Source: an uncultured Candidatus Saccharibacteria bacterium
Lineage (GTDB): Bacteria; Patescibacteriota; Kazan-3B-28
Assembly: GCA_964434605.1 (NCBI GenBank)
Contig: CAYSVM010000001.1
Span: 54,011 to 118,010 of the forward strand
DNA length: 64,000 bases
Direction of reading: 5' to 3'
Positions 1-43,341 of the stretch are shown piece by piece; the stretch's first letter is position 1; each line of letters begins with the position of its first letter. The position numbers and the translations under genes are program-made. The notes under the pieces were generated by a model that was not told the DNA's origin, made no database searches, and worked only from the letters and a program-made list of their open reading frames with translations.

Positions 1-102
1 GATTACGGCGATTGCGCCGTACAAGAACCATCTATGCTTCAGGAAACTAAGCGGAATTTTGATGGAAACATGGCTGGGAAGAGATTTGTTTTTCATAAGA
101 CG

Positions 103-1176
103 CTAATTAATTTCCTTGGCTAATTGGCGAATAACATCCTCAAGGGTTTTAACGTTGACCTTCCCCCAAGACCATTTGGCTAGTTTTGCATAGATGTTAG
201 CATCACGACGAGGTAATAGCTCCACTCCGGAGATAGACTTTTTAACAACTCCTTCCAAAGCATCAGCCACTGGAGCATCGGCCCAGAACTGTGGCCCTCC
301 ACCTTCAAAATCTGGGTCAATATGCAACATAATGGTTGCCTTATGGCGAGGCTGGGTGCCGATATAAATATTGAGATACTTCGATGTTCTCTTGGCGGTT
401 ACCCCCAATTCACCAAAGTCACCCCTAAGAATTGAGTTAAACAGCTGAAGATATTCCTGGATCTTGGCAGAACGACCAAAGGCAGACAGAAAATCTTCGT
501 CCGCAGGAATATCTAATGGTTTGGACTTGGCAGTTACATCCTTCTTGGTGGCAGCCCCAAATAACTTAGGTATGACAATTTCAGTGCTGTCATGTTTGTA
601 ATATTCTAGTTCAACAGCATAGATATCGAACTTGCTGTTCTGATTGAGGTAGACAATTAGATCTTTCAGACGATCTTCCAGTGAGTCCATCAAGACAACA
701 AACTTGTAATTACTATCATCCAAGTGGGTGCGGACAGTATCCCAGAGCTGTTGAGCTTCAGCTTCACTTAGGCCCAACTCTTGTTGCATCCGCTCGAACA
801 GCCCGGTTTGAAAGTGGGCACGGGTAGTTTGTTCTATCGTGGCGGTAAATTGCTCCCAATCGGTGTCGTGTTTCCAAAGCGATGCTCCATAGTCCAGAAC
901 CTGGGCAATAACTCTACGCTTATCGGCATTGCGATAGAGCTTGGTTTCGATCAGATAAATATCACCGTCGGTATCGATGGCAATAGCATCAATGGGGCCG
1001 CTACTAGTCATATATTCACGGACTAGGATCAACGGCCGAACATTCTCTTTGATATCGTAAAGCGGAACCACTTCGGGGTTCTCGTAGATGTATTTCTGCA
1101 AAGAATCTTCAAGATCGAATTTGGACTGTTCGACCTTGTGAGCCTTTTTGCCTGGTTGGGTAATAATGATGGCCAT
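103..1176 (-). CDS. PD-(D/E)XK nuclease-fold protein (NucS/RecB-like nuclease domain at N-terminus, uncharacterised C-terminal domain)
   Basis: 357-aa ORF. The motif 'VREYMTSSGPIDAIAIDTDGDIYLIETKL...VIAQVLDY' matches the RE..G.ID..A.D..G...IE.K...V.QL..Y signature of NucS-like and restriction-endonuclease-like nucleases. The C-terminal 170 aa are unassigned. Confidence 0.45.
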   Translation of the reverse strand: MAIIITQPGKKAHKVEQSKFDLEDSLQKYIYENPEVVPLYDIKENVRPLILVREYMTSSGPIDAIAIDTDGDIYLIETKLYRNADKRRVIAQVLDYGASLWKHDTDWEQFTATIEQTTRAHFQTGLFERMQQELGLSEAEAQQLWDTVRTHLDDSNYKFVVLMDSLEDRLKDLIVYLNQNSKFDIYAVELEYYKHDSTEIVIPKLFGAATKKDVTAKSKPLDIPADEDFLSAFGRSAKIQEYLQLFNSILRGDFGELGVTAKRTSKYLNIYIGTQPRHKATIMLHIDPDFEGGGPQFWADAPVADALEGVVKKSISGVELLPRRDANIYAKLAKWSWGKVNVKTLEDVIRQLAKEIN

Positions 1177-1249
1177 AGCTTCGAGTTATACTACCAGCTG
1201 TGGCCTGCCGACCTTTTGATGAATTATTCAAAAAGGGGCAGACCTCACG

Positions 1250-1480
1250 CTTAGTCAACCCGAAACCTCTGGCCCGAAGGCTGAGCATTACGGTAAGCAG
1301 AGCATCTGCCCGTCTTTGACCGCAATGCGGTTTGACGAGAATACTGCTTCTGCTTCGGGCCTACTAAAAATACAAACTTTAAAGGTTTCGGGTTGACGAG
1401 GCCATCATAACATAAAACCGCCCTCTGGGAAGGGGTTTTCCGCTTCTAGACCCAACTAACGCACTTGGGTCGCTTTGCTC
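1250..1480. ncRNA. Candidate structured RNA of unknown class in a 520-bp non-coding gap
   Basis: Perfect 14-bp inverted repeat gtcaacccgaaacc (1254-1267) with ggtttcgggttgac (1384-1397) encloses a 9-bp inverted repeat ggcccgaag (1271-1279) with cttcgggcc (1353-1361). Further local hairpins at gcag..ctgc 1297-1309, ccgc..gcgg 1320-1330 and gacccaa..ttgggtc about 1454-1476. The gap is GC-richer than the surrounding DNA and has no ORF. Confidence 0.3.
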
Positions 1481-1696
1481 GCGCACTGGTTGGCTCAACA
1501 GCTCGGTCTGGATTGGTGCCCCAAGGAGATAATTAGGACCTTTCGAGACGGCATTGGGGTATCTAGGTCAATTATAGAGCCTTAAAGAGAAAATAGACAA
1601 ATGAGATAGTGGCAAGGGGTCTGTCTTGCTATGGATTTTAAGCAGGCTTTGTGACGTAATAACTGACTAACTTAAAAAATTAAAGACAATCCCTTA

Positions 1697-2419
1697 TCAG
1701 AATATAACCGGGGTCATAGGATCCCGCCGAATAGTTGATTTACTAGCTGTGCTTGATTTGGTGTCAAAGAGACGCAAGATTTCTATTTGAGTTTTCAATC
1801 CGGGAATCCAACTAGCAGGTAGAGACCCATCTTCGATGTACTTACTCAGATTGTGAATCAGTCTAGTAAAATCTCTCTTTGGATTCCTGCTAATCGATCC
1901 ACGCACGAGTCTTAGTGATAATGCAATGTCACTTTGCTGCTGAGCGGTATAGGATTTACCCAAAATCTTCATCTGGGATTGAGTGGGACCTCCGATACCC
2001 TTTTCGATTGCCGACCTAACCTCAGATTCTGAAAGTCCATTCTCTTTTGCAAAATCTTTGATAGCCTTCTTGGTAAACTCGGAGTCAAGAGTCGCGCCTG
2101 TCCACCATGGCTCTTCATAAATTTTTCTACACAGACCTTCTGTTGTAGCGGTTACATCGTCCTCGATTACTCCTTTGGGACAGTTAGCTTTACTTGGTGG
2201 TAAACATTTGCCAGTAGAGTCTTCACAGTAAAGTGTTCCCGAATAGAATTCAGGACTATAGCAATTACCATATTTGTCGCAATCCTCCGGAAACATTTTC
2301 TGAACTGAGGATCCATAAACTAAAACTGAGCTAGGGTCTTCAACACAACTGATGATTTTCCCTTGAGCTCCATCTTCAACAACTGGGAAAAACCCAATCG
2401 GGCAGATTTGATTAGACAA
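1697..2419 (-). CDS. Hypothetical protein with a Cys-rich N-terminal half (about 10 Cys in 90 aa)
   Basis: 240-aa ORF with no recognisable catalytic motif. It lies in an AT-richer block with three other unknown ORFs on the same strand. Confidence 0.5.
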   Translation of the reverse strand: MSNQICPIGFFPVVEDGAQGKIISCVEDPSSVLVYGSSVQKMFPEDCDKYGNCYSPEFYSGTLYCEDSTGKCLPPSKANCPKGVIEDDVTATTEGLCRKIYEEPWWTGATLDSEFTKKAIKDFAKENGLSESEVRSAIEKGIGGPTQSQMKILGKSYTAQQQSDIALSLRLVRGSISRNPKRDFTRLIHNLSKYIEDGSLPASWIPGLKTQIEILRLFDTKSSTASKSTIRRDPMTPVIF

Positions 2420-2454
2420 CTGACTCTAAAGGTTATTGTCAGTAGGTTTTTTCT

Positions 2455-2796
2455 TTAATAATTCAGACAACTGCTCGCACCTTTATAGCGATTCTCATAA
2501 TCTTGTTTTAATTTTTCCTGACATGCTTGGCGGGAAATCGATGCACCCCAGCAGGGGTGACTAGTATCGTTCTTAGCATTGATATAGGCGTTAAACATCC
2601 AGTAGTCTCTTCCTGATTGCAGAGTACCAAAATCCCCTCTAGCCAACATTGCTTCATCAATCGCCTTTTGAACTTTGGGGTCATCATAAGACTTCCCTCT
2701 AATAGACGAGTTAGGGCCCATTTTGAGGTGTTGGTACATCTGGAACCTGGCCGATTGAGCCCTATAGGCATCATGGGCACGATCATAAAAATCCAC
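2455..2796 (-). CDS. Hypothetical protein
   Basis: 113-aa ORF co-directional with neighbours. A 92-aa ORF in another frame overlaps it, so the frame call is uncertain. Confidence 0.4.
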   Translation of the reverse strand: MDFYDRAHDAYRAQSARFQMYQHLKMGPNSSIRGKSYDDPKVQKAIDEAMLARGDFGTLQSGRDYWMFNAYINAKNDTSHPCWGASISRQACQEKLKQDYENRYKGASSCLNY

Positions 2797-2803
2797 GCCT
2801 CTA

Positions 2804-4099
2804 TTATTGATGAAACCAGCGCCAGATTTGCTCTTTCATTTCGTCTCGTTCTGCACGGGTAATATCTCCTTGGCGGTATTTTTTATCAGCATCTTTTAAA
2901 CCCGCAAAATATTTATCGAGCCTAGTCCGTTGAGGGCGAGAAGAAGATTGGGCGTTAAACTTATCTATGTTACCCGCCGTAACCTTTTTCCAGCCCCGCT
3001 TTTGCGCCTCCTCTTCAGTAACACAATTAGCAACCTGAGTTGGTTTGTCGTTACCTTCTTTCCAGACGAAACCTTTCTGTTTGCCCCTTACTGTTTTTGC
3101 AATCTTCTCCGCCTCTTTTGTGGTTACACGGTGAGACGGCAGTTTTTGCATCTCCGCTTCAGCCATTGACCATTGGCTGGCGTTCTCTCTAATGGCTTTA
3201 TCAAATTCTCGAATCTTTTCCCCAGCGAGTTCTTTCTTTTCGTCTATAATTCCGACACCTTTTTCTTTTAATAAATCTACCGAGAACATATCAATGGCAT
3301 CTGCGTCTACATATTTGTTTATGATTGCATCTGCCTCACCCCAAGTCATAGATTTAGTGGAAAATTTGTTATTTTCCCTCTTTTCGGCAATCCCGAGTTT
3401 TTTTAATAAACCTCCCCAGGACCTATCAGGTATAAGCACCGCACCCTCAATCCTAGTTCTAGAATTATCCATAGACCGAAAACTTTTCATCTCTTCAATT
3501 AGCGAGGAAAGATTAAAATTCAATTTGTCCAGTCTTTCGTTGTGCTGCTTTAATACGTTGCTATCGGTTGTCCTGGAGATTATTTTTTCAATTTCATTTA
3601 TTGCTTTAATGTTAGAAGAAATACGTGATTTGAAATTGTTAATCCGTAAATCCCCTCTCAGCAAAAAAGTAAAAGCATCGTTTAAAGAATCTCTTTGGCT
3701 TCTCAAATCTTCCCCCATAGTCGTGATTTTATCCACAACCTTCTGAACTTCGGTGTTGTGAGTTTTTACAGCTTCGGTTTCTTGTGCCTTTAAAGCGTAA
3801 AGGTTACCAACACTGCTTTCTTCTGGACATAGTCCTTTACCGTCTATCGAAATAGGTAGGTTATTGTAAAAACCAAGATTGGTCTCATCTCCAACAATCT
3901 TGTAATCGCGACCCCCGGTGAGAGCCCGGTATTGAGCATCCGTCAGCTGATCGGGCCCATAATACTTTGTTCCCCAAGCGAACACAGGCAAAGGGATATT
4001 AAACAAAAAGATAACCAAAAAAAGACTAACCCAAAAACAACTTTTTTGTTTATTTGAAAAATTACTCAGTAACGATGACCTGTTCATAGGTACCTTCAC
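2804..4099 (-). CDS. Hypothetical membrane-anchored or secreted protein with coiled-coil regions
   Basis: 431 aa with an N-terminal hydrophobic segment 'CFWVSLFLVIFLFNIPLPVFAWG' followed by a long charged helical region. No enzymatic motif seen. Confidence 0.55.
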   Translation of the reverse strand: MKVPMNRSSLLSNFSNKQKSCFWVSLFLVIFLFNIPLPVFAWGTKYYGPDQLTDAQYRALTGGRDYKIVGDETNLGFYNNLPISIDGKGLCPEESSVGNLYALKAQETEAVKTHNTEVQKVVDKITTMGEDLRSQRDSLNDAFTFLLRGDLRINNFKSRISSNIKAINEIEKIISRTTDSNVLKQHNERLDKLNFNLSSLIEEMKSFRSMDNSRTRIEGAVLIPDRSWGGLLKKLGIAEKRENNKFSTKSMTWGEADAIINKYVDADAIDMFSVDLLKEKGVGIIDEKKELAGEKIREFDKAIRENASQWSMAEAEMQKLPSHRVTTKEAEKIAKTVRGKQKGFVWKEGNDKPTQVANCVTEEEAQKRGWKKVTAGNIDKFNAQSSSRPQRTRLDKYFAGLKDADKKYRQGDITRAERDEMKEQIWRWFHQ

Positions 4100-4343
4100 T
4101 TTCTCTCAGAATAAGAAAAAGATTCATACTAGATAGCGCCAATTCACTCATGAGCGTTTGGCTGACCATAGGCGGCAGGGACGTTGCACTAACTACCCCG
4201 ATATTATGTTCATCACGTGGTCTTTCAGTCTGGATTGAATACGCAAAAGCCAAAGAGGCGGCAAAAACGACAACAATCCCTAAAAATATATATAAAGGAT
4301 AAAATATTTTAGAACTAGAAGATGTGGTCTTGATATTTTTCAT
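4062..4343 (-). CDS. Small single-pass membrane protein (hypothetical)
   Basis: 93-aa ORF with TM segment 'IFYPLYIFLGIVVVFAASLAFAY'. It overlaps the start of the downstream ORF by 38 nt. Confidence 0.4.
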   Translation of the reverse strand: MKNIKTTSSSSKIFYPLYIFLGIVVVFAASLAFAYSIQTERPRDEHNIGVVSATSLPPMVSQTLMSELALSSMNLFLILRESEGTYEQVIVTE

Positions 4344-4711
4344 CCTACCTCAAAAAAACTACCCTAATTACACAATATATCAAAATCAGTAGAAAGTCAA
4401 GCTTGGTAGACTCTAGACCCCACCGCAGATTGGAAAATAATTATGTACCAAGACCAACTATTTTGCTATTTGGGGCAAAATTTTCTCAACCACTACAACA
4501 GAGAACCCACACTACAATTAACCAAATATCCATCACTGGCTGGGACGGTAGGACGATTTCCCGGGTGCTCCGGGGGCCCTGCGATTCAGCTGCAACAAGG
4601 AATGACACAAAACTATAGAGCAGCTGAACGGACGCACCCAAGCCTGACGGCAGGTTCAAATCCATGATACTGCGGCCAAGAAAAAATCAGGGCCAACTCC
4701 TTGCTTTTTCT

Positions 4712-4788
4712 CTTGGCTCCGGGGGTGGGATTCGAACCCACGGTCCATCGATTAACAGTCGATTGCTTTACCGCTAAGCTACCCCGGA
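4712..4788 (-). tRNA. tRNA-Asn (GTT)
   Basis: Reverse complement reads UCCGGGGUAGCUUAGCGGUAAAGCAAUCGACUGUUAAUCGAUGGACCGUGGGUUCGAAUCCCACCCCCGGAGCCA. Anticodon loop is cU-GUU-aa, T-loop is GGTTCGAATCC, and the CCA is encoded. Confidence 0.85.
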
Positions 4789-4825
4789 ATGTGCGTCACC
4801 AATAAGATAACGCGGTAATTGTAAT

Positions 4826-6421
4826 TTACTTCAAATAATCTTTCAACTTCTTACTATCCTTACTCTTCCTCAGCTTCATCAAAGCCTTAGCCTCAATCTG
4901 ACGAATACGCTCACGAGTAACTCCAAATTCCTTTCCCACTTCCTCTAGTGTATGCGCCCATTCACCACCTAAACCAAAACGTAACTTTAGGATCTTCTGC
5001 TCTCTTGGGCTAAGCAAATCCAATACTCCGCCCACATCTCCCTTCAGAAGTTCGTAAGCCGAAGCTTCTTCTGGCGTAAGGTTATCTTCATCTGGAATAA
5101 AGTCACCCAGAAGTGAATCATCCTCATCTCCCACCGATTTCTCCAAAGATACCGTTTCTTGGGAGATTTTTAGGATATGGTTTACTTTCTCTACTTCCAA
5201 TTCCATTTCATTAGCAATCTCTTCTGGAGTAGGCTCACGTCCTAGTTCCTGTACTAGTTGTCTCTGGGTACGTGCCAAACGATTCATCGTTTCCACCATA
5301 TGGACAGGAATACGGATAGTTCTTGCCTGATCTGCAATAGCCCTAGTAATTGCCTGTCTAATCCACCAGGTAGCATAGGTAGAGAATTTGAATCCTCTTC
5401 GCCAGTCAAATTTCTCGACTGCCTTCATTAGACCAATGTTTCCTTCTTGAATAAGATCGAGAAGAGACAAGCCTCGGCCAATATATTTCTTGGCAATAGA
5501 CACTACTAGTCGTAAGTTTGCTTCTGCTAGTTGTTTAGAAGCCAACACATCTCCCTGTTCTACTCTTTTTGCCAAAGCAACTTCTTCTTCTGCTCGAAGC
5601 AAAGGAACCTGTCCTATTTCTTTCAAATACATCCTTACCGAGTCATCGCTAATGTCGTCTTCTAGCAAATGTGGATCTATATTCACATCCAACTTGTTCC
5701 GCATCTTTTTCTTGGTCGCCTCAGTTTTCTTGCTCATCTTACTGTCTTCTGCCAACGACCAGATTAGATCATCTCGAACATCAACAACTTCGATTCCTTC
5801 TTCCATTAAGATCTGGAATAGTAAATCGAGCATTTCAATCTGCTTCTCTACATTTGGAACCGCCTGTTCTAACTCCTGCTGGGTAATAAAGCCCTTTGCC
5901 TTTCCAGCCGAAACTAAGTCAGCTACCGGCCCCGGCAAGTTCCCTATACCAGAGTCTTTTCGTTTGCACTTCTTTCCAGCTTCCTCTTCATCCTCTATCT
6001 CAAACATCTTAAGCTTTGGATCTTCTGGCCTTGGTTCACCAAGCAATTCTTCCTTTTCCGATTTCTTCTTTTTGACAACATTCTTTACAGCAAGCTTCTT
6101 AGCTTTCTTTACTACTTTCTTACCAGTCTTTTTAACCTGCTTTTTTACCAAGCGCTTCTTTGCCACCTTCTTCACTATCTTTTTCGGTTTTTTCTTCAAA
6201 ACCGGTTTGCGTTTAGCAACCCGTTTGGAGACAACTTTCTTACGGACCAATTTCTTGGCTGGTTTTTTGGCTGGTTTTTTCTTCCCCATTTTTCTTACAA
6301 CCTTTTTTGCGATTTTTTTTGCCGGCTTTTTCCCGACGGTCGCCCGCTTGCGAACCACCGCCCGTTTACCCGCCGTGCGGGAGGCTGCTTTCTTTTTCGG
6401 CGCGGATTTTTTTCTCGCCAT
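4826..6421 (-). CDS. rpoD: RNA polymerase sigma-70 factor RpoD with a lysine-rich N-terminal extension
   Basis: Region 2 to 4 motifs are present: '[27 protein letters not shown]' and '[27 protein letters not shown]'. The first 140 aa or so are AKKPAKK-type repeats. Confidence 0.95.
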
Positions 6422-6445
6422 AGAAAGTCAGTTAAATACTATTAT

Positions 6446-8176
6446 CTATAATTGGTTTAATTCTTTTAGAAGCTCTGCTACTCTTGCCTGATCATTCTTC
6501 GTTTCCGCCTCGGCAATTGCTGCTGCCAGTTCATTCCTTTTAATAGTAGCAGAACGATTCACCAGCAGATCTAGATAGAACTTCATCTCTCTTTCTAGAT
6601 CTTCCATCGAAACTTCTGTGTAATTCTGTTCTAAAACCAGCAGTAATTCCAAAGCAGATGTCTTGGCTGGTTCGGGGAGCCGTTTCAAAAAATCTTCAGC
6701 CTGGAAGATAGCGTTGGAAGTATACCAAGATTGGATTGCATCGTAAATGGTATTTGCCAGTCCAGAAGCCCATTTTATCCTGCCACCAACCTCAAGTAAT
6801 CGGGGGATAAGCTTGGGGGACAACATAGGTAGCATTACCGCCCTCTCCTCCAGCCAGGTCGGAGACAGATTTTCCACCTGGGTAGGACTAGCTTTTGGTT
6901 CGGTTTTTGCTGGCTGGGGTGCTCGCTTTAGTGTGTCGTATAAAATTGCTGGTTCAACATCTACGGTACGAGCTAATCTTTTAATATAAAAATCTTTCTC
7001 GACTGGATCGATTAGCTTGTTTATAACTGCCAGTAGTTCTCTTGCCAGCTGTTTCTTGTCCTCCAGTTTTTTTACATCATACTTACGTGTTGCAATATCG
7101 AAATAGAAGTCCATTACCGGTACTGCTTCTGTAATCGCCTTTTTCCAGTACTCTGGGTTTTCTTTAATCATCGAATCGGGATCTTTGTATTCCCCTAACA
7201 AAACTACCTTCATTGCCATGTCAAACTTATTGGAAAGTTCCAATGCCCTCCGAGTCGCTTCCCCACCTGCCGCATCTGCATCCAGCGACAATACCAGTTC
7301 TCTACAATATCGATTCAACAACCGTAATTGCTGTTCAGTCAGTGCAGTACCAGAAATCCCCACTACATTTTTTACTCCAGCCTGATGCGAGCTAATTGTG
7401 TCCATCTGTCCTTCCACCAACACCACTCTACCTTCTTGCTGAATTGCTTGTTTTGCCAAATGCAAGCCATATAACAGCTCGCTCTTATGGAACAACGGGG
7501 TTTCTGGTGAATTCAGATATTTGGGGATTCCATTTGGATCCAGCACTCGACCGGTAAACGCAACTACCCGACCCAGACTATCCCAAAGCGGGAACATTAC
7601 TCGTCCAGAAAATTTATCCCACAAAAAGTTTCCCTTGCGCACCGCCAATCCAGCTTTCTCAATATCCCCCTCTTTCGCTCCCTTACGAATTAGAATATCT
7701 ATTAACGCCCTCCCCGACTTCGGCGCAAATCCAATCCGAAACTCTGCCAAAGTAGCGGGACTCAATCCCCGACCCACCATGTATTCTTTTGCCGCTCTAC
7801 CTTCGCTGGTCTCAACTAAAACTTTTTCGTAGAACTTCGCCGCCGCCTCATTTATATTCATCAAAATCTTACGAGCATCTATTCCAGATTGCGGTACCTT
7901 AGAAAGCTGGACACCGGTTTGTTCCGCCAACAACTGCAAGGCTTCTGCAAACCCTATTCCTTCTTTCTCCATTACAAACTTGAATACATCTCCACCTCTT
8001 CCACAACCAAAACAATGCCAAATCTGCTTGTCTGGACTAACCATGAAAGATGATGTTTTCTCTACATGAAAAGGACACAAACCCTTGTAGTTCACCCCCG
8101 CTTTTTTGAGCGGCAAATACCGGCCAATGAAATCGACCAAATCTATCTTATTCTTTATTTCATCTAAGTCGGTCAT
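6446..8176 (-). CDS. dnaG: DNA primase DnaG
   Basis: CHC2 zinc finger 'CPFHVEKTSSFMVSPDKQIWHCFGCGRGGD' and a TOPRIM region. It is adjacent to rpoD, as in the classic macromolecular-synthesis operon. Confidence 0.95.
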   Translation of the reverse strand: MTDLDEIKNKIDLVDFIGRYLPLKKAGVNYKGLCPFHVEKTSSFMVSPDKQIWHCFGCGRGGDVFKFVMEKEGIGFAEALQLLAEQTGVQLSKVPQSGIDARKILMNINEAAAKFYEKVLVETSEGRAAKEYMVGRGLSPATLAEFRIGFAPKSGRALIDILIRKGAKEGDIEKAGLAVRKGNFLWDKFSGRVMFPLWDSLGRVVAFTGRVLDPNGIPKYLNSPETPLFHKSELLYGLHLAKQAIQQEGRVVLVEGQMDTISSHQAGVKNVVGISGTALTEQQLRLLNRYCRELVLSLDADAAGGEATRRALELSNKFDMAMKVVLLGEYKDPDSMIKENPEYWKKAITEAVPVMDFYFDIATRKYDVKKLEDKKQLARELLAVINKLIDPVEKDFYIKRLARTVDVEPAILYDTLKRAPQPAKTEPKASPTQVENLSPTWLEERAVMLPMLSPKLIPRLLEVGGRIKWASGLANTIYDAIQSWYTSNAIFQAEDFLKRLPEPAKTSALELLLVLEQNYTEVSMEDLEREMKFYLDLLVNRSATIKRNELAAAIAEAETKNDQARVAELLKELNQL

Positions 8177-8766
8177 ATCAAAGTTAGATTACTAACTGCC
8201 TCCGGTATTTCCGGCCATCCTTTCACCCTTATCACCTGTGGTGGCAATCGATGGTATATGTTCCAAGGCTTGTCCATAACTATCAATCTTACCCCATGTT
8301 CCATCAAGGATCCTATGTGGCGCGTATCATCATCTATTAAAACCTTGCATCCCAGTCTTTCACAAACCTCCCCTTTAGTTAGTGTCTTGCTTCCGTCTTT
8401 GGGATAGTTGTTAGTAAATTCCACCGCCCTAAAAGCATTGGGGAAATTTCGGTCCAGCCACGCACGGGTAGTATCCTGCACCACATTCTGTCTTCCTGTT
8501 ACCGCATACAGCTCATGGCTTGCAAGCAGTTCTGCGATACCCTCTTTCGCCCCAGCCACCAACGGCAAATTTCTAAATCTATCTGTTTCAAAAAATCTGT
8601 GCACATCATCCACCGCCTCTTCCACCGTATTCCCCAGAAAATTCGGCCAGTGGTAATCAGTCACATCATCCCATGTCCAATTCGCTCCGTATTCCTGGTT
8701 GTACCACTTGAAAAACTCGCCGATAAACTCTGCCAAAATCTCATCTATATCTACCGCAATTCTCAT
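8173..8766 (-). CDS. HAD-superfamily 5'(3')-deoxyribonucleotidase-like hydrolase
   Basis: 'MRIAVDIDEILAEF' is the DxDx(V/I) HAD motif I of the NT5C family. The start was trimmed to the internal Met because the longer ORF (to 8850) overlaps tRNA-Ser. Confidence 0.6.
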   Translation of the reverse strand: MRIAVDIDEILAEFIGEFFKWYNQEYGANWTWDDVTDYHWPNFLGNTVEEAVDDVHRFFETDRFRNLPLVAGAKEGIAELLASHELYAVTGRQNVVQDTTRAWLDRNFPNAFRAVEFTNNYPKDGSKTLTKGEVCERLGCKVLIDDDTRHIGSLMEHGVRLIVMDKPWNIYHRLPPQVIRVKGWPEIPEAVSNLTLI

Positions 8767-8774
8767 ATCTTTAT

Positions 8775-8864
8775 TGGCGGAGGATGTGGGATTTGAACCC
8801 ACGAGGGGATTACTCCCCAACCGCCTTTCCAAGACGGCGCCATAGACCACTAGGCGAATCCTCC
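8775..8864 (-). tRNA. tRNA-Ser (GGA)
   Basis: Reverse complement is GGAGGATTCGCCTAGTGGTCTATGGCGCCGTCTTGGAAAGGCGG...GTGGGTTCAAATCCCACATCCTCCGCCA. It has a long variable arm, anticodon loop cuU-GGA-aa, and an encoded CCA. Confidence 0.85.
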
Positions 8865-8918
8865 AGTTCCTTTACCTTATATTCAAAATCTCCTTCTGAC
8901 CATATTATTATACCCGTC

Positions 8919-8947
8919 TTGACCTCCTCCTCCATCCGGTATATATT
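8919..8947 (+). promoter_or_regulatory. Candidate sigma-70 promoter for the rpsF-ssb-rpsR operon
   Basis: TTGACC (8919-8924), a 17-nt spacer, then TATATT (8942-8947), about 85 nt upstream of the rpsF ATG. Confidence 0.3.
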
Positions 8948-9030
8948 CCCTCTGTATTCACATATATCTTCTAACCTTCTCTCCCAGCCTGATTGCAGGC
9001 CGGGAAACCCACAGAAAAGGATTTTTCACT

Positions 9031-9555
9031 ATGGCTACACAAGAGGAAATCACCCTGGGAAACTACGAAATTACCCTCCTTATTTCCCCAGAAACACAGG
9101 AGATGGACGTCCAAAAGCTGGTCGCCAAACTCCAGAACCAAATCGCCCAAAAAGGCGGACGCATCTTCTCAACAGATATGTGGGGCAAACAGCGCCTCGC
9201 CTATCCAATTGGCAAGTTCGAGTTCGGCTTCTATACCACTCTAGTTTTCTCATATCCCACCGTCGAAGTTGCCGAACTAACTAAAGATATTAAACTAATC
9301 CCCGAGGTCATTCGCTACATGGCTTTATCTCTAGAGAAGGAAGGTGTTACTCCTGAAACTCTTAAAAGAGTCGATCCCTTTAAGGAAGTCCCTATTAGCG
9401 AACATACTGCTCATCCTGTTACAGAAAGCAGACCTGTTCGTACTCGCACCCGTGCAACCGCTCCAGCTTCCGAAGCCCCCAAAGCTTCCAAAAAAGACGA
9501 AGCCACTCGCATGAAAGAGCTGGAAGAAAAACTTGGTAAATTATTAGAAGAATAA
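9031..9555 (+). CDS. rpsF: 30S ribosomal protein S6 with a C-terminal extension
   Basis: The N-terminal 100 aa have the S6 fold signature 'YEITLLISPE...GGRIFSTDMWGKQRLAYPI'. The protein is 174 aa, so it carries about 60 extra C-terminal residues. Next genes are ssb and rpsR, the conserved order. Confidence 0.9.
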   Translation: MATQEEITLGNYEITLLISPETQEMDVQKLVAKLQNQIAQKGGRIFSTDMWGKQRLAYPIGKFEFGFYTTLVFSYPTVEVAELTKDIKLIPEVIRYMALSLEKEGVTPETLKRVDPFKEVPISEHTAHPVTESRPVRTRTRATAPASEAPKASKKDEATRMKELEEKLGKLLEE

Positions 9556-9584
9556 AGGCATATTAGCCATTAAACTTTAAAACC

Positions 9585-10037
9585 ATGCGTGATCTAAACA
9601 AAGTAATGTTAATCGGGAACCTGACTCGCGACCCAGAACTCCGTTCCACCAATAGTGGCCAAACGGTTGCATCTTTCGCTGTTGCTACCAACCGCTCTTG
9701 GAATGATGCCCAAGGGAATCGCCAAGATGCTGTTGAATATATAGATGTTGTTGCTTGGGGAAAGTTAGCTGAAATCGTTGGCCAAATTTACCGCAAAGGA
9801 CGTCGCACTTACGTCGAAGGTCGTTTCCAAACTCGCAGCTGGGAACAAGATGGTATCAAGCGATACAAAACTGAAGTTATCGCTTCCGACCTTATTTTGC
9901 TCGACCGTGCACCAGCAGGCGAAGTTGCCCCTCTACAAAGCAATGCATCCACCGAAGCATCCGCCCAACCAGTAGCCGCAGTTGATCCACTTGCTACTGC
10001 CGCAGATGAAATCAATATTGAAGATATTCCATTCTAA
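9585..10037 (+). CDS. ssb: Single-stranded DNA-binding protein
   Basis: OB-fold 'VMLIGNLTRDPELR...VAWGKLAEIV' and the acidic C-terminal tip 'DIPF'. Confidence 0.9.
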   Translation: MRDLNKVMLIGNLTRDPELRSTNSGQTVASFAVATNRSWNDAQGNRQDAVEYIDVVAWGKLAEIVGQIYRKGRRTYVEGRFQTRSWEQDGIKRYKTEVIASDLILLDRAPAGEVAPLQSNASTEASAQPVAAVDPLATAADEINIEDIPF

Positions 10038-10048
10038 ACTTTCAACTT

Positions 10049-10303
10049 ATGATAAAAAAATCTACTACTAGCGTTAGCCGTCGTCGAGTCACCACCCTAA
10101 CCCCCCGAAACTACAACGTTTCTACTGACGAGCTGAACTATATTGACTACAAGAACGTCCGACTTATTCGCCGATACATGACTCGCTACATGAAGATCGA
10201 ACCGCGCCGACGTTCCGGCCTCACCGCTAAGCAACAAAGAGACATGGCAACAGCTATCAAACGTGCTCGCTACATGGCTTTTGTCCCCTACGCCCTCCGT
10301 TAA
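10049..10303 (+). CDS. rpsR: 30S ribosomal protein S18
   Basis: 'IDYKNVRLIRRYMTRYMKIEPRRRSGLTAKQQRDMATAIKRARYMAFVPY' is the S18 signature. Confidence 0.9.
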   Translation: MIKKSTTSVSRRRVTTLTPRNYNVSTDELNYIDYKNVRLIRRYMTRYMKIEPRRRSGLTAKQQRDMATAIKRARYMAFVPYALR

Positions 10304-12585: not shown

Positions 12586-13669
12586 ACATCGCCTTCACGG
12601 CAGCAACTGCTTTTGATATCACCCACTTCCAAACTGTTACCAACCATCCACTTCTCTGAGTGGGACTTTCTTTAATAACCGACGGAGCTACCGGAGTGGT
12701 CTTAGTCGGTGCTTTCTTCGCGATTGATTGACCAGTCGAAGATCCCGTCCGTACTGTTACTTTAATATTAACCTTCGTATTCGGAAACCAAGTAATGTAT
12801 TCCGCTACCATAGCGAACTGCGTACTATAAACTCCTGGGCTTAGTGGAGCCTCTATCTTCAGATTGAACCAACCCGTCCCTCTCGTATCCAGTTTTCCTA
12901 AACCATCAGCGGATTCAATCACTGCTGCTCGGTTAAACTTAATCCATTCATTACTAGATAGCGTACTAGGACGATCATCTACTACTCCCAACCTTATCGG
13001 ATTGTTTGTTCCAGCCCCATACCAAACCGCATTACCAACATTAGTTACATCAACTCTAATTACACTCTGCTCACCCGGTAATAGGGTTACCGCATAAGTC
13101 TGCTTCAAAATTCTAGCCCTATAATCAGCTGCTTTCCAAATTGTAGTAGGTGGAGTTGGTAAAATAGGCTGTGGCTCATACGTAATACCACCACCACCTC
13201 CACCACCTCCCGGTAGCTGTGGAATAACTGCTGCTACAAGACTAAACACAGTATCGCTCACATCGTTTATAGACGGATCTCCTACTTTACTAACCCGAAT
13301 ACTAGCAGTTGTAGTAACAGAACCAGTTGCTGTCCAAGAATAAGTTCCATCATTAGCAGTTGATGCAGTAATCGTTTCCCAGCTTCCTCCAACCGAACGT
13401 TGTAATTCAATTTTTACATCTGTAATCGTAAGAGTGACAGTCCAAGTAATATTCTGACTAGTTCCAATAGTCCAACTTTCCCCACCATTCGGAGATGAAA
13501 CCGAAATTACTTCTCCACCCGGTGGCAAAACTGTCACCGATAAAGTTAATGCTCCACTCGTACCTGCTTGTGCCCACAGGCTCCCTAACCCAACTATCCC
13601 TATCGCTAAAACAGCACACAGCTCGCGCTCTAGCCATTGCAACAGGTTGTGTAACTTGGGATTAATCAT
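12575..13669 (-). CDS. Secreted surface protein, tandem paralog A (Ig-like N-domain, poly-Gly linker, C-terminal conserved beta-sandwich repeat)
   Basis: Signal peptide '...LLQWLERELCAVLAIGIVGLGSLWAQA', the 'PNGGESWTIGTSQNITW' domain, a 'GGGGGGGG' linker, and a C-terminal repeat shared with 13683-15023 and the SpoIID protein. Confidence 0.7.
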   Translation of the reverse strand: MINPKLHNLLQWLERELCAVLAIGIVGLGSLWAQAGTSGALTLSVTVLPPGGEVISVSSPNGGESWTIGTSQNITWTVTLTITDVKIELQRSVGGSWETITASTANDGTYSWTATGSVTTTASIRVSKVGDPSINDVSDTVFSLVAAVIPQLPGGGGGGGGITYEPQPILPTPPTTIWKAADYRARILKQTYAVTLLPGEQSVIRVDVTNVGNAVWYGAGTNNPIRLGVVDDRPSTLSSNEWIKFNRAAVIESADGLGKLDTRGTGWFNLKIEAPLSPGVYSTQFAMVAEYITWFPNTKVNIKVTVRTGSSTGQSIAKKAPTKTTPVAPSVIKESPTQRSGWLVTVWKWVISKAVAAVKAMSTH

Positions 13670-13682: not shown

Positions 13683-15023
13683 TTACCGACTCCATAGACC
13701 CTTAAATTTACCCAGCAATTGGTTGAACAAACCGCCAAGATTTCTTAAAAATCTTTCAGTTTGGTCGTAAAATTCCGCTGGTCCAGCAGGAAGATTTGGC
13801 ATCGTAAAGATTGAACCAGTCTTTCCTCCAGTTGACTTTTGCACTGTAGAAGTGCTGACCGGTTTAGGCAACACCACAAATTCCCAACTCACCGTCCCAT
13901 CCATCCATTGCAAATACTCGGCTACTGGCTGAAAATATTCCACATATGTACCAGCCTTTTGAGGAGCCCTGACTTTGAATACAAATCTCCCTATCTCTCC
14001 CGGGCTAATAACTTGCTTGCCTTTCAATCCTGGTTTCTGAACATTAGCGGGACGATTGCGTAAAATCCAGCTGCTTCTCCAAAAAACGCTTTTCCTATCA
14101 CGAGGCTGCGAAGTCCCTAATCGGGTTGTATTTCTGCCGTAAGTCCGCCATTCGGTCGTTCCAGTATTTAAAAGCTTCACCCATACTTCTACATCCCGGC
14201 CAGCCTTCAGTTGCACTCTAGATTCCGACTGATTAATTAACTTAGCGGCATAATATAACCCCTCAACTTTTATCTTCTTGTCCCAAGTTGCCAATGTGCC
14301 ATTACTGTTATACACAGCTAAGATATATTCACCTGGACGAAAACCTTTTGACACCTTTAGCCGAACATGAGAATGATTGCCCGTCCATAACATTCTCAAA
14401 TTAGAATCCCCCAACTTAAAAACTGTATCGTATTCAAAGTTGGAACCAAACACATCCAATATCACTTCTGTCGTGTTCACAAATGAACTTGGAGTCACAT
14501 TCAGAAGAGTGGGGTAGAACACAAAAGTACCATTACCGCCACCACCAGGAGTCGATATTACAGGGGGAACCATTGCATCAGTAATAGCAAATACCCCATT
14601 ACTAACATCCATAATGGCTGGGTTTGTGGCATCACTGATTTTAACTATTGCAGTAGTAGTAACTGCTCCAGTAACCACCCATGGATAACTAGCCGGAATA
14701 ACTGCTACTGATGCCACGATTGTTTCCCAAGCGCCACCAGTAGTTCGTTGCAGCTCCAGTTTAACATCGGTTATCCCTGCACCCGCAACCCATTCGATAT
14801 TGTGTGAAGTTCCGATCTTCCAGCTTTCACCTCCATTAGGTACATTAAGCTGAAGCGTACCAGGTGCAGGAAGGATACTAATAGAAGTCGCTACATCAAT
14901 GGTTGTTCTCGCTTGAGCAGCCCACACCAAGCCACCGACTAAAACTAGAAATGCTAAAATCGTACACAGCTCACGCTCTAGCCATTGCAATAATTTATGA
15001 CGATTGAAGCTGATTTTCATCAA
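13683..15023 (-). CDS. Secreted surface protein, tandem paralog B
   Basis: Same N-terminal leader 'KLLQWLERELCTILAFLVLVGGLVWAAQA', the 'PNGGESWKIGTSHNIEW' domain, 'GGGGNG' linkers, and a C-terminal 'SxFWRSSWILRNRP...PGE.GRFVFKVRAP..GTYVEYFQPVAEY..W' repeat. Confidence 0.7.
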   Translation of the reverse strand: MMKISFNRHKLLQWLERELCTILAFLVLVGGLVWAAQARTTIDVATSISILPAPGTLQLNVPNGGESWKIGTSHNIEWVAGAGITDVKLELQRTTGGAWETIVASVAVIPASYPWVVTGAVTTTAIVKISDATNPAIMDVSNGVFAITDAMVPPVISTPGGGGNGTFVFYPTLLNVTPSSFVNTTEVILDVFGSNFEYDTVFKLGDSNLRMLWTGNHSHVRLKVSKGFRPGEYILAVYNSNGTLATWDKKIKVEGLYYAAKLINQSESRVQLKAGRDVEVWVKLLNTGTTEWRTYGRNTTRLGTSQPRDRKSVFWRSSWILRNRPANVQKPGLKGKQVISPGEIGRFVFKVRAPQKAGTYVEYFQPVAEYLQWMDGTVSWEFVVLPKPVSTSTVQKSTGGKTGSIFTMPNLPAGPAEFYDQTERFLRNLGGLFNQLLGKFKGLWSR

Positions 15024-15109: not shown

Positions 15110-16081
15110 TTACGTAACTCTTCTTCTCTCCTGATACTTATCCTTTGGCATTGTGAAGATCATTTTGCCTGCTACAGTCTGAAAGACCCTAGTAACCACC
15201 ACTTCAATTTCCTGTCCAATAGACCTATCTCCCCCTTCTACCACCACCATTGTGCCATCATCTAGATAGCCTACGCCCTGACCAACATCTTTTCCAGACT
15301 GTATTACCCTAAGCTTCATCGCTTCTCCAGGTAATACTACTGGACGAAGAGCGTTGTTAAGTTCGTTGATATTCAAAACGACCACGTTCTGGATTCTTGC
15401 CACCCGATTAAGATTGTAGTCCACTGTCATTAACCGAGCATGATATTTCTTGGCTAAACGAATAATCTTTGAATCCACATCGGGTTCAGTTACAAAATCA
15501 TCATCCACTACATCCAATTGGACACTACGCTCATGCCTAAGTTCATCTAACACTTCTAATCCTCTTCTACCCTTATTGCGTCGGATAACTTCTTCGGAAT
15601 CTGCCACCAACTGCAACTCGTCCAAAACAAATCTTGGTAATACTAACTTTCCCGAAACAAACCCAATCTTTACGAGATCTGCGATTCTCCCATCGATAAT
15701 CACACTAGTATCGAGAACTATTCCCCCTTCCACCAACCCGCCCGGAGTATCTCTCCGCAACTTTTTTGTTTCTTTCACTAAAGTATCCATCAATGAAAAA
15801 AGTTGAGTCAGAGAAGCCCCAATCTTTTCCCTTTGATTGTAAAAGAAAGTGGTAGTTAAAGCTACCGCAAAAATGTTTACCAGTAATGGCAACCAGACTC
15901 CCCACACCCCTGACATTTTCGCAAGCGGTAAGGAAACTAGCGTTCCGATAGAAAGCCCCACTATCACCCCGAGTAACGTCATCACAAACACCGATGATGG
16001 AATCATCGATATCTTCTTTGCTATCACCACATAAACCACGAGGAATAATAGTAGCGCACCAATAAGAATCTGCCAGATCAT
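15110..16081 (-). CDS. PIN/TRAM-domain membrane protein (YacL-like)
   Basis: Two N-terminal TM helices, a PIN domain 'GIVLDTSVIIDGRI', and a C-terminal TRAM-like beta-barrel. It sits beside clpC, as yacL does in Firmicutes. Confidence 0.75.
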   Translation of the reverse strand: MIWQILIGALLLFLVVYVVIAKKISMIPSSVFVMTLLGVIVGLSIGTLVSLPLAKMSGVWGVWLPLLVNIFAVALTTTFFYNQREKIGASLTQLFSLMDTLVKETKKLRRDTPGGLVEGGIVLDTSVIIDGRIADLVKIGFVSGKLVLPRFVLDELQLVADSEEVIRRNKGRRGLEVLDELRHERSVQLDVVDDDFVTEPDVDSKIIRLAKKYHARLMTVDYNLNRVARIQNVVVLNINELNNALRPVVLPGEAMKLRVIQSGKDVGQGVGYLDDGTMVVVEGGDRSIGQEIEVVVTRVFQTVAGKMIFTMPKDKYQERRRVT

Positions 16082-16128: not shown

Positions 16129-18621
16129 CTACACCGCTGCTTTTACTCGCGCTTTTGCCCGAGCCAAGCTCAAAACCAACTTGTCATCTACTTGCTCAAC
16201 TTTTACTGTCGAGCCCTTAACAAACTGTTTTGCCAAAATTCCTTCTGCTAATCGATCTTCTATCATTGTTTGAATCAATCTTCTGACAGGCCTCGCACCA
16301 AGCTCTGGCTCAAAACCATGCTCTACAATCCATTTCCTAGCACCAGTTCCCACGTCTAACTTTATCTTCTGCCTATCCAGTCTCTTCATTAAATCATTGA
16401 GCTGCAATTCGACAATCTTCTCAATCTCTACCGAACCAAGCGCTTTGAAAACGATAACCTTATCAAATCGATTCACAAGCTCTGGACGGAACCTTTTCTT
16501 CACTTCATCCAAAACCTGCTCTTTGATTTTGCCATAATCCTGCACTACATCTGCCCCGCGACTAAATCCCAAAACCGCATGCCGATTCAGTGCTTCCGTT
16601 CCGACATTAGAAGTAAGGATAACGATAGTATTTCTAAAACTCACTCTTCTACCCTTAGCGTCAGTTAGCGATCCGTCTTCAAGCATCTGCAATAAAATAT
16701 TCATCACTTCCGGATGTGCCTTTTCTACTTCATCCATCAGCACCACAGAATATGGCTTGCGCCGCACTGCTTCAGTAAGTTTACCCGCCTCTTCGTAACC
16801 GACATATCCAGGAGGAGCACCGACTAACCGAGAGACAGTATGTCGCTCACTAAACTCACTCATATCCATTTTTATCAAAGCATCCCTGTCTCTAAAGACT
16901 TCTTCAGCCAACACTTTTGCAAGTTCAGTCTTTCCAACTCCGGTTGGACCCAAAAACAGAAATGATCCCATTGGTCGATCTGGATTACCAATATCTACTC
17001 TTGAACGCTTAATCGCAGACGCCACTGCCTCCACCGCCTCGTCTTGTCCAATAATCCGACTCCTTAAAATATTGTCTAAGTCCTGCAATCTTTCAATTTC
17101 ATCAGCCGCCAAATTACCCACTGGAATGTTGGTCCATTGGGAAACAACCTTAGCGATATCTTTGTCGTCAACCTTCGGCCAACCAGTCTTCTTGCCATCG
17201 TGATGCTGTTTTGAAAGCGTTTCTATCTTTTTCTTTAGCCGGATCTCAGCTCCACGCAATTTAGCTGCCGTTTCATAATCCTGGATATCTATTGCTTCTT
17301 CTTTCTGAGCAGTTATCTTAGCTAACTCTTCTTTTTCAGTGTTGGCTAATTCTGGCTCACTTATTCCCGAAGAAATTCTTACTGCCGAAGCTGCTTCATC
17401 AATTAAGTCTATCGCCTTGTCCGGCAAAAAACGATCGTTGATATAACGCACAGAAAGATTCACAGCTGCCTCGATAGATTTATCAGTAATATTTACTTTG
17501 TGATAATTTTCATAATTCTTCCGAACACCTTTAATAATTTTTATCGTGTCGTCAGCCGTTGGTTCGCTAACCATTACTGGCTGAAAACGTCTTTCCAAAG
17601 CAGCATCTTTTTCAATATGCTTACGATATTCGTCCAAAGTTGTAGCACCTATCATCTGCAAAGCCCCCCGAGCTAATGCCGGCTTCAATATATTAGCTGC
17701 GTCTAAACTTCCCTCCGCACTTCCAGCACCAACCAATGTATGAAGCTCATCTACAAACAAAATTACATCAGCTGCTTTGCCAACCTCATCTACCATCTGA
17801 TTTATTCTATCCTCGAACTCTCCCCTATATTTAGTTCCAGCTACCATAGCAGATGGGTTAATCGCCATGATTCTTTTTTTCTTCAAATTCTCAGGCACAT
17901 TACCATCCCGCACCATAAGGGCCAAACCTTCTGCAATTGCAGTTTTACCAATTCCCGGTTCGCCTAACAATACAGGATTATTCTTAGTACGACGATTCAA
18001 TATTTGTATGACCCGAGCTATCTCCTGATCCCTCCCTATTACCGGATCAATCTTTCCTTCTCTTGCCATATTGGTAATATCTACACTGAATTGATCAAGA
18101 ATTGGAGTAGTACTCTTACCGTCTCCACTTCCTTCTGTAGCTCCAACCCGAACCCGAGGTTCACGTTCACGGTTTGCTTCCATAAGTGATGCGACTTGAG
18201 TTGCCACTACACCCGGATCAAGACCCAATTCTAGTAAAATAGCATACGCACGACTTCCTCGATTCTGTGCCATTGCAAACAACAAATGTTCTGTTCCTAT
18301 ATAAAAACTTCCATATTGAGCTGCCACCAACACGGCCCCCTCGATGGATCTTTTTGCATTATCAGTCAATCCAACCCTCTGTCCAGATCCTCGCTGCACT
18401 AGACCCATCATCATTTCGACTCGCTCTCCGCTTACACCCAAACTACTCAACACCTCGTAAGCCGAACCACTCCGAACATTTAACATAGCAAGCAACAAAT
18501 GTTCACTACCCAAATGTGCGTCGCCTAAATCACGTGCCAACTTCTGGGCATTGGTTAATACCTTTTTAGCATTAGTGGTGAATTTGTCTAAGAAATAATT
18601 ATCCATAATCTCCCCCCTCAC
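16129..18621 (-). CDS. clpC: ATP-dependent Clp protease ATP-binding subunit ClpC
   Basis: Clp_N repeats, two AAA+ modules (Walker A 'GEPGIGKT' and 'GPTGVGKT'), and a UVR-like linker '[20 protein letters not shown]'. Confidence 0.9.
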
Positions 18622-42558: not shown

Positions 42559-42586
42559 GGCCGCCCTTCTCGGGCGGTCTTTCTTT
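42559..42586 (+). terminator. Rho-independent terminator after the pilin gene
   Basis: ggccgccc-ttctc-gggcggtc hairpin followed by tttcttt. Confidence 0.55.
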
Positions 42587-42675
42587 GGCGGAGGCGACAG
42601 GATTCGAACCTGTGAGGGGCCTAAGCCCCAACCGGTTTTCGAGACCAGCGCCATCAACCGCTCGGCCACGCCTCC
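42586..42675 (-). tRNA. tRNA-Ser (CGA)
   Basis: Reverse complement is GGAGGCGTGGCCGAGCGGTTGATGGCGCTGGTCTCGAAAACCGG...AGGTTCGAATCCTGTCGCCTCCGCCA. Long variable arm, anticodon loop cU-CGA-aa, CCA encoded. Confidence 0.85.
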
Positions 42676-42689
42676 GTATTCATTGTAAT

Positions 42690-43151: not shown

Positions 43152-43163
43152 ATATATACCAGC

Positions 43164-43330: not shown

Positions 43331-43341
43331 ATCTTTTCTGG

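Follow-up and report, generated by a model that had tools for sequence, protein, structure and literature searches.

The left end of a stretch of 64,000 nucleotides (nt) of contig CAYSVM010000001.1, from an uncultured Candidatus Saccharibacteria bacterium of the Kazan-3B-28 lineage (assembly GCA_964434605.1; the whole stretch is referred to as the window), carries at positions 1–4713 a block of uncharacterized genes next to a tRNA-Asn gene. Is this block a single genomic island inserted at the tRNA? A preliminary description, made from the letters of the DNA alone, had proposed a possible genomic island or accessory locus. Our analysis favors, with a probability of roughly 0.6, a patchwork of accessory DNA, assembled where recombination recurs downstream of tRNA-Asn in this Patescibacteria genome (candidate phyla radiation, CPR; Kazan-related), rather than one island. 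Four parts can be told apart, counted from the tRNA: a spacer (4344–4713), a module with a gene for a small membrane protein and a split gene for a secreted protein (1697–4343), non-coding border elements (1489–1696), and the end of a compact element with a NucS-like nuclease gene (1–1490). The proposal of an accessory locus is thus retained, since the site is variable and its four middle ORFs are absent in relatives, but that of one island gives way to a mosaic.

A variable site at the 3' end of tRNA-Asn

The tRNA-Asn(GUU) gene (4714–4788, minus strand) is intact and has an encoded CCA (ARAGORN; Rfam tRNA, 74.4 bits). Since it lies on the minus strand, block 1–4713 abuts its 3' end, which is position 4714 and faces the block; position 4712, given earlier, was off by two bases. 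To the right of the tRNA follow rpoD (4826–6421) and dnaG (6446–8176). The block has two non-coding gaps (1177–1696 and 4344–4713), and the junctions among its five minus-strand open reading frames (ORFs) are an overlap of 26–38 nt, followed by gaps of 7 nt and 35 nt. The curated Pfam and NCBIfam thresholds were passed by none of the five proteins encoded by complete ORFs, in agreement with the initial impression of a non-housekeeping block that abuts the 3' end of the tRNA.

A scan anchored on DnaG, with one genome per species, returned Patescibacteria only, and all comparison sequences are metagenome-assembled. The relatives used most are the following:

L001: DnaG identity 93%; 6.7-kb contig; backbone nucleotide identity 89%
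L002: DnaG identity 82%; complete 560-kb chromosome
L005: DnaG identity 81%
L004: DnaG identity 57%
L008: DnaG identity 49%; a "Kazan" bacterium
L009: DnaG identity 49%

Nucleotide homology to L001, L002, L004 and L009 spans dnaG, rpoD and the tRNA, and ends at window positions 4705–4712. Beyond this point, tblastn searches with the proteins of the four middle ORFs (1697–4343) gave no match in any of 138 related loci, among them 80 DnaG-anchored and 57 NucS-anchored ones, so the comparison of presence and absence recommended earlier comes out in favor of accessory DNA. The tRNA-Asn gene is the border between a conserved dnaG-rpoD backbone and a variable region. What follows it differs in each of L001, L002, L005, L008 and L009: for instance, L002 has genes for a TehB-type methyltransferase, a glycosyltransferase, Dus and RluB-like proteins together with tRNA-Met genes, and L008 has three unrelated single genes.

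In four relatives a gene for a large serine recombinase lies on the strand opposite to tRNA-Asn and converges on it (L004, 13370–14875; L005, 14159–15760; L029, 14009–15613; L069, 13408–14907). The last ~12 codons of these genes (~36–39 nt) are encoded by the tRNA-Asn 3' end, which implies that the attachment site of the element lies inside the end of the recombinase gene. The proteins contain the domains Resolvase, Recombinase and Zn_ribbon_recom. Large serine recombinases are "not known for targeting tRNA genes" (Mageeney et al. 2020, PMC7192596), and for this reason their occurrence at tRNA-Asn deserves attention, a remark that holds for the relatives and not for the window. A further recombinase gene, in L011 (14366–15964), encodes a protein 56% identical to that of L005 and occupies the corresponding place downstream of dnaG, where ARAGORN reports no tRNA-Asn.

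Many Patescibacteria loci show a perfect or near-perfect direct repeat of 17–20 nt of the tRNA-Asn 3' end, 65–240 nt downstream of it (L008, at 13856–14071, and L038, L041, L024, L058, L026, L042, L035, L051 and L068). The short inserts between the tRNA and the repeat begin with an inverted copy of the T-arm. Possible explanations for these repeats are scars of integration, miniature elements, and annotation errors at tRNA-Asn genes that are duplicated or contain an intron (cf. PMC13011429). Group I introns are known in tRNA-Asn genes of Patescibacteria at position 35/36 (PMC13011429); in the window such an intron is ruled out, as both ARAGORN and Rfam find the gene intact and intron-free.

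The part of the block closest to the tRNA contains the following features:

4344–4713, no strand assigned: non-coding spacer of ~370 nt, from tRNA-Asn to the accessory genes
~4676–4703, both strands: bidirectional terminator-like hairpin next to the tRNA (consensus scan)
4400–4372, minus strand: promoter-like site for the gene of a 93-amino acid (aa) protein (consensus scan)

A 44-nt core of the spacer (4573–4616) is common to the region after tRNA-Asn in L002 (local alignment, z = 8.8 against shuffles). As L002 has none of the downstream genes, the shared core suggests that the spacer is probably older than the neighboring module. We considered a transfer-messenger RNA (tmRNA) or another known RNA at 4344–4713 and rejected it: ARAGORN makes no default call, its low-threshold calls reuse tRNA-Asn, and the spacer has no match in Rfam, including no tmRNA at E-values up to 10. 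Its folding z-scores of about -2 on both strands do not discriminate. Separately, a T-loop-like motif (GGTTCAAATCC / GGTTCGARTCC) is found opposite to the tRNA-Asn strand, 40–60 nt past the end of the tRNA, at a position conserved in four genomes (window, 4640–4665, plus strand; L002, ~13575–13600; L008, ~13895–13915; L012, ~13385–13405); no tmRNA or Rfam family was recognized there. The spacers of L008 and L012 are strongly alike (z = 21).

The middle module and its borders

The module next to the spacer had been described as an operon-like arrangement of four genes. Its ORFs are as follows:

4062–4343, minus strand: 93-aa protein (tm93) with one N-terminal transmembrane segment (ORF list)
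2804–4087, minus strand: fragment 1, 427 codons from the ATG at 4087 (ORF 2804–4099, 431 aa; P0008 alignment)
2455–2796, minus strand: fragment 2, 113 codons, GTG start (P0008 alignment)
1697–2419, minus strand: fragment 3, 240 codons, TTG start (P0008 alignment)

A full HMMER scan of 1.84 billion representative sequences with the 240-aa protein identified P0008, an 846-aa protein encoded by a single ORF on a 5.2-kb NCBI contig, with a Sec-type signal peptide and without any Pfam domain. P0008 aligns collinearly with all three fragments:

P0008 residues 2–381: window 4054–2819, frame -2, 43% identity
P0008 residues 394–501: window 2790–2470, frame -3, 53% identity
P0008 residues 559–726: window 2410–1922, frame -2, 57% identity

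The 60 nt that separate the second piece from the third leave about 57 residues of P0008 unaccounted for, and over its last ~75 residues the 240-aa ORF bears no relation to P0008. Fragment 1 has a GAAGG ribosome-binding site 7 nt ahead of its ATG and encodes a signal peptide and, after it, an extended helical stretch that resembles a coiled coil; the GTG and TTG codons of fragments 2 and 3 are the first possible starts after a stop and lack a well-placed ribosome-binding site. Judging from this alignment, ORFs 2804–4099, 2455–2796 and 1697–2419 are pieces of one gene, separated by two frame changes and a deletion of ~57 codons. By reading, no recognizable slippery site is present at the first frame change. 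The most economical reading of the sequence is that the gene of a lineage-specific secreted protein has been recently disrupted, or at least split; most likely, then, a surface-protein gene is seen here in decay or in pieces. The operon-like appearance is therefore real as far as the common strand and the short or overlapping junctions are concerned, but with three of the ORFs being collinear fragments the module comprises two genes and not four. The other gene, for the 93-aa protein, overlaps the start of fragment 1 and has a GAGG/AGG ribosome-binding site before its ATG; its product forms a singleton cluster with no family match, and was called as a gene also on Logan contig L081.

P0008 is the only known homolog of the split protein. 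In word-index searches the 427-aa and 113-aa proteins, each compared with 5.8 billion proteins, matched only themselves, and so did P0008; among ~15 billion proteins the family counts two members. Judging from its signal peptide and pattern of Cys residues, the large, Cys-rich product is predicted to be extracellular and rich in disulfides, as a surface protein or a secreted one. A model of P0008 built with AlphaFold2 from a four-row alignment is unusable (mean predicted local distance difference test score 43, predicted template modeling score 0.26); modeling suggests at most that the N-terminal region is long and helical. Several other candidates were dismissed: similarity of the 240-aa ORF to ADP-ribosyltransferase exoenzymes (Pfam E-value 0.009) is below the cutoff and nothing else backs it; P0009 (E-value 4.8e-4) was not accepted as a homolog, being a repeat protein of low complexity; and a phage origin of the gene found no match in IMG/VR or PHROG.

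Could the frame breaks and the junction with the tRNA be artefacts? The source is a metagenome-assembled genome, and a chimeric contig joined near the tRNA and its variable region, with sequencing errors as frame breaks, would be in keeping with the fact that the contigs of L001 and L079 end at or just after tRNA-Asn and that a Logan contig ends at window position 2171. That same contig, L081 (run SRR11582139), equals window 2171–10279 with 0 mismatches, and this overlap takes in tRNA-Asn, the spacer, the tm93 gene and both frame breaks. Even though the two assemblies may share reads, such agreement makes an assembly artefact most improbable. L081 ends inside the 240-codon fragment, ~250 nt before the end of the similarity to P0008 (1922), perhaps because strains differ in the part of the gene that encodes the C-terminal region of the secreted protein.

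Beyond the stop codon of the last fragment lie two conserved non-coding elements and a promoter-like site:

1592–1675, minus strand: element A, non-coding, conserved, directly past the stop of the last gene fragment (nhmmer)
1600–1571, minus strand: promoter-like site within element B (consensus scan)
1489–1592, minus strand: element B, non-coding, conserved, ending in GAGCCA (TGGCTC on the plus strand, 1491–1496; nhmmer)

Element A matches L005 at 21526–21610 (E-value 3.1e-5), ~7.3 kb beyond the tRNA-Asn and recombinase genes of that genome. Element B has three copies in L008 by nhmmer (E-values 4.7e-10, 3.6e-5 and 0.0066, at 15622–15724, 17273–17432 and 18717–18861), all ending in GAGCCA. 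In the interval from tRNA-Asn to a tRNA-Met cluster, these copies separate three unrelated single genes, whose products are a 260-aa protein of unknown family, a protein with a Fic domain and one of 341 aa. Such positions suggest that elements A and B are border or recombination sites. Neither folds better than shuffled sequences (for element B, z is -1.4 to +0.7 on both strands). The layout in L008 resembles a cassette array, with no integrase visible. We rejected element B as an integron-like cassette site, since it has no significant fold and no integrase was seen, in an analysis that did not include dedicated attC models. GAGCCA at 1491–1496 might at most be what tandem integration left of a tRNA-Asn 3' end that has since decayed; its position is attractive, but the similarity is not significant (p 0.01–0.3 against shuffles) and it is not among the window's best matches to the tRNA end.

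The borders bear on the possibility that the middle module is not mobile at all, the tm93 and secreted-protein genes being vertically inherited, fast-evolving surface genes particular to the lineage, and lost or replaced in relatives, so that only the nuclease module would move. Host-like codon usage, G+C content at third codon positions (GC3) and dinucleotide signature agree with such a history, as do the tiny family, with its two known members, the spacer core next door that is common to L002, the lack of a mobility gene in the module and its absence from IMG/VR. Nevertheless, the module is missing at this site in every relative examined, including L001 with its 89% identical backbone, its distal side is bracketed by the same non-coding elements with which islands or cassettes are bordered in L005 and L008, and the end of the Logan contig at 2171 hints at heterogeneity within the population. 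On balance we regard vertical descent of the module as unlikely, and repeated exchange at a mosaic site as the better explanation.

A compact element with a nuclease gene and a structured RNA

The left part of the block corresponds to one end of a compact element, with these features:

1435–1490, minus strand: outer end of the element, ACCAGTGCGCGAGCAAAGCGACCC... (junctions compared with L001, L009, L082, L083, L084 and L089)
1434–1421, minus strand: terminator-like hairpin upstream of the RNA (consensus scan; conserved in 9 elements)
1431–1404, minus strand: promoter-like site TTCCCA, 16 nt, TG-TATGAT (consensus scan; conserved in 9 elements)
1227–1400, minus strand: conserved structured RNA of about 175 nt (covariance model, 167 bits)
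103–1176, minus strand: NucS-like PD-(D/E)xK nuclease-fold protein, 357 aa (PADLOC PDC-S11, E-value 5.4e-17)
1–96, minus strand: first 32 codons of the gene of a DUF2939-family membrane protein, which runs off the left end (match to L082)

A search with 1177–1696 by nhmmer identified segment 1183–1512 in L009 and 1201–1497 in L001, in both cases directly after tRNA-Asn, and part of it in L005. The same upstream sequence is present in L082, L083, L084, L089 and L094. Wherever the locus includes the junction, the element starts right after the CCA of an intact tRNA, be it tRNA-Asn (L001, L009), tRNA-Trp (L082, L084, L089) or tRNA-Gln (L083), and the sequence corresponding to 1177–1497 is then always followed by a NucS-like gene. 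The order within the element is constant: tRNA, ~100 nt ending in a terminator hairpin, a TG-TATGAT promoter-like site, the ~175-nt region, the NucS-like gene and the gene of a DUF2939 membrane protein of 205–212 aa, in place of which L009 has an unrelated 239-aa gene. The ORF that begins at window position 96 shows 75% identity, over 32 aa, with a 210-aa protein of L082 whose gene comes after the NucS-like one; the ortholog in L084 scores 34 bits with Pfam DUF2939 (cutoff 24.8) and matches PADLOC PDC-S55.

A convergent gene of a large serine recombinase lies within a few nt of the DUF2939 gene in L084, L089 and L094, and after the 239-aa gene in L009. Compact elements of this kind measure ~3.5 kb and consist of three genes and the RNA. 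More broadly, a recombinase is present in the flank of 19 of 60 NucS loci (16 of the 30 with long flanks, and both IMG/VR contigs). A distal attachment (att) repeat was not found for the elements of L084 and L089, the only shared motif lying upstream of the recombinase. By analogy with this layout, a recombinase in our genome would fall about 0.65 kb to the left of position 1, and we put the chance that one lies just outside the window at roughly one half. A second, longer layout also occurs among NucS-like loci, in which the serine recombinase lies 4.8–5.8 kb upstream (4.8–5.0 kb in 10 of 11 loci: L096, L097, L099, L103, L104, L110, L111, L115, L117, L139 and L140); in L104 and L110 a tRNA-Gln is found ~2–3 kb further upstream, and two of the contigs are viral according to IMG/VR.

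The preliminary description of the 357-aa protein as NucS-like holds for its nuclease core motif and not for membership in the family. Besides PDC-S11 it matches PADLOC PDC-S18, but its scores are far under the NucS thresholds (17.4 bits with Pfam NucS_C, cutoff 24; 22.5 with NCBIfam NucS, cutoff 216), it has no Pfam match to NucS_N, and the similarity to the NucS structure (PDB 2vld, E-value 0.1) covers the catalytic core only. Residues D63, E77 and K79 are invariant in 7 homologs and align with the catalytic core of NucS. As far as can be judged from these alignments, the protein carries a PD-(D/E)xK catalytic motif and is not a NucS ortholog. It shares with NucS/EndoMS the D...E-x-K core, which is C-terminal in that enzyme; here, in contrast, the core is N-terminal (residues ~40–100 of 357) and precedes an unrelated, variable C-terminal half. 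Homologous loci number 57 from metagenomes and 2 from IMG/VR, and the proteins of L082–L084 are 65–72% identical to that of the window. To our knowledge PDC-S11 is a computational candidate for a defence gene only, with no tested function.

The RNA at 1227–1400 ends 50 nt upstream of the start codon of the NucS-like gene and has a U-run at its 3' side. An RNAalifold consensus of nine full sequences from related elements comprises 46 base pairs in three main helices, and 17 of these pairs show compensatory double changes. In the same MAFFT alignment, 93% of paired cells can pair, against 38–54% when the partners are slid by 1–3 columns; the slid controls show 2–6 double-change pairs, and none of 500 shuffles reaches the observed values. 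The covariance model matches ten other copies, namely the eight others from the training alignment and two weaker, new ones (L086 and L087). In nine of the ten cases a NucS-like gene follows closely (42–50 nt from the RNA to the start codon where measured). The exception, in L005, has no nuclease gene: the RNA is divergent from the recombinase and precedes by ~480 nt another gene, whose product we take to be DUF3800-like from its motif. No family of Rfam 15 (4227 families) matches the RNA, even at an E-value of 10 on the isolated region.

This RNA resembles leader RNAs and riboswitch-like motifs in being a multi-helix RNA with strong covariation at a fixed distance (42–50 nt) before one gene family, with a promoter-like site and a 3' U-run of its own; it differs from them in the lack of an Rfam 15 match and in the nuclease-free copy of L005. 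Based on its sequence and position it is a candidate for a cis-acting leader that controls the nuclease gene, and also for an independent small RNA. A function as target guide was considered and rejected: the RNA falls into two sequence subtypes that do not track the type of the neighboring tRNA (tRNA-Trp was found with both), which argues against a role in the choice of target. It is possible, though this is put forward tentatively and with more doubt than confidence, that the RNA represents a new structured-RNA class of serine-recombinase elements in Patescibacteria and acts as a functional partner, either a ligand- or signal-sensing switch that gates the nuclease or an RNA component used by the nuclease or recombinase, and no mere passive leader, and that the 3.5-kb elements are an undescribed family of tRNA-targeting serine-integrase elements with candidate defence genes.

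The outer end of this element also bears on the single island, understood classically as one element in the tRNA-Asn 3' end that spans 1–4713 and continues leftward, with its integrase and distal att site outside the window. The region does abut the 3' end of the tRNA, where the backbone homology stops; its non-housekeeping genes are all co-oriented, segment 1697–4343 is slightly lower in GC, and relatives have recombinases at tRNA-Asn. Yet the NucS module has its own outer end at ~1490, which lies directly at a tRNA in six other genomes, among them the closest relative, L001, where it sits on tRNA-Asn without the four ORFs in between. Moreover, the spacer core is common to L002, which has none of the rest, no repeat of the tRNA end is found in the window, and the composition is near-uniform. 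We thus consider a single classical island quite improbable, and prefer to view the block as a mosaic.

Integration, residence and significance

Base composition says little about the origin of the block. In accordance with the initial remark that the four middle ORFs are AT-richer, the GC content of 1697–4343 is 41.1%, 2.8 points below the 43.9% of the whole window and at the 0.6th percentile of all stretches of the same length in the window (standard deviation 1.4 points for this size); but the block as a whole (1–4711) has 43.0% GC and stands at the 20th percentile. The tetranucleotide distance of 1697–4343 is in the top 5%, and the dinucleotide signature of the block is typical of the window. 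The comparison of codon usage suggested earlier showed no deviation: the genes of the block have GC 0.39–0.44, GC3 0.35–0.43 and a synonymous-codon likelihood of -1.02 to -1.17 per codon, all within the spread of the other ~50 ORFs of the window (means 0.44, 0.42 and -1.13; standard deviations 0.027, 0.058 and 0.05). The AT-richness is real yet slight, and alone it is no evidence of foreign origin.

How, then, could the mosaic have arisen? At the 3' ends of tRNA genes in this phylum, or directly beside them, large serine recombinases would insert small elements, and repeated insertion, replacement and deletion at tRNA-Asn may have built the patchwork. The copy in the window could likewise have arrived by serine-recombinase integration, as its relatives elsewhere suggest. 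The middle module may have been inserted between the tRNA and an older NucS element, or else the module came first and the NucS element settled beyond it, at a secondary site. Expression of the nuclease, candidate cargo against phages or plasmids, is probably under the control of the leader RNA.

A number of observations weigh against this scenario. Family scans detected no recombinase domain in the proteins of 1–4713, and tblastn with the serine recombinases of relatives revealed neither a recombinase nor a remnant of one in the 64-kb window. A second copy of the tRNA-Asn end is likewise missing from the window at up to 3 mismatches in 24 nt, the best downstream match (12/20) being at background level. 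The integrase or tRNA-end repeat anticipated in the preliminary description was thus not found within the 64 kb, and for this genome we infer integration by analogy. Among the three closest full-length relatives of the NucS-like gene a recombinase is seen in L084 only; L083 has none directly after the DUF2939 gene and the contig of L082 stops too early there. The outer end of the window copy (~1490) adjoins ...GCTGTTGAGCCA of a non-tRNA element, 3.2 kb from tRNA-Asn, instead of a tRNA. Host-like composition and codon usage fit old residence, vertical descent or gain from a close relative, and the pseudogene reading of the secreted-protein gene is based on a single intact homolog, P0008 (n = 1).

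Comparison with known systems leads to a similarly mixed picture. Islands at tRNA 3' ends classically have tyrosine integrases and a direct repeat of the tRNA end. As in these islands, the strain-specific DNA of the window starts within a few nt of an intact tRNA 3' end, the cargo at the site differs among relatives, and several of these have a site-specific recombinase there; unlike in them, the window has neither an integrase nor a direct repeat of the tRNA end, its composition is near-uniform, it is a mosaic, and the recombinases of relatives at the site are of the large serine class. With elements mobilized by large serine recombinases the relatives of the NucS/DUF2939 module share a neighboring protein with the Resolvase, Recombinase and Zn_ribbon_recom domains, which also matches PHROG 95 ("integrase"), and the compact elements lack long flanking att repeats, as expected for serine integrases. 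They differ in that the recombinase is not in the window and that the elements of relatives are only ~3.5 kb long and located at tRNA 3' ends. Comparison bears out the expectation that the DNA at this tRNA 3' end is accessory and probably close to a recombinase; composition and repeats do not.

A few features elsewhere in the window were recorded in passing. RpoD (4826–6421, minus strand) has a Lys/Ala/Pro-rich N-terminal extension of about 130–150 residues; L002 and L009 have such an extension too, of another length and sequence. The longest ORF of an NT5C-family nucleotidase (8173–8850, minus strand) overlaps the tRNA-Ser(GGA) gene (8775–8864, minus strand) by ~75 nt; translation probably begins in fact at an internal ATG (MRIAVDIDE...) a short way downstream of the tRNA. 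A cluster at 42586–43925 comprises three genes for tRNA-Ser and one for tRNA-Arg; tRNA-Ser(GCT) and tRNA-Arg(ACG), at 43164–43330, directly abut at 43253/43254.

Patescibacteria have tiny genomes and few recognized mobile elements, and it is useful to learn where and how they gain and lose accessory genes; in this lineage the tRNA-Asn site downstream of dnaG-rpoD is recurrently variable. The locus also advises caution, as an apparent operon of genes without known relatives can be one fragmented gene. The att sites of the serine recombinases of relatives could interest genome engineers, and a candidate defence nuclease accompanied by a strongly covarying RNA that Rfam lacks makes a small, concrete and testable system. 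Finally, the rare and fast-evolving secreted protein may take part in the episymbiotic lifestyle.

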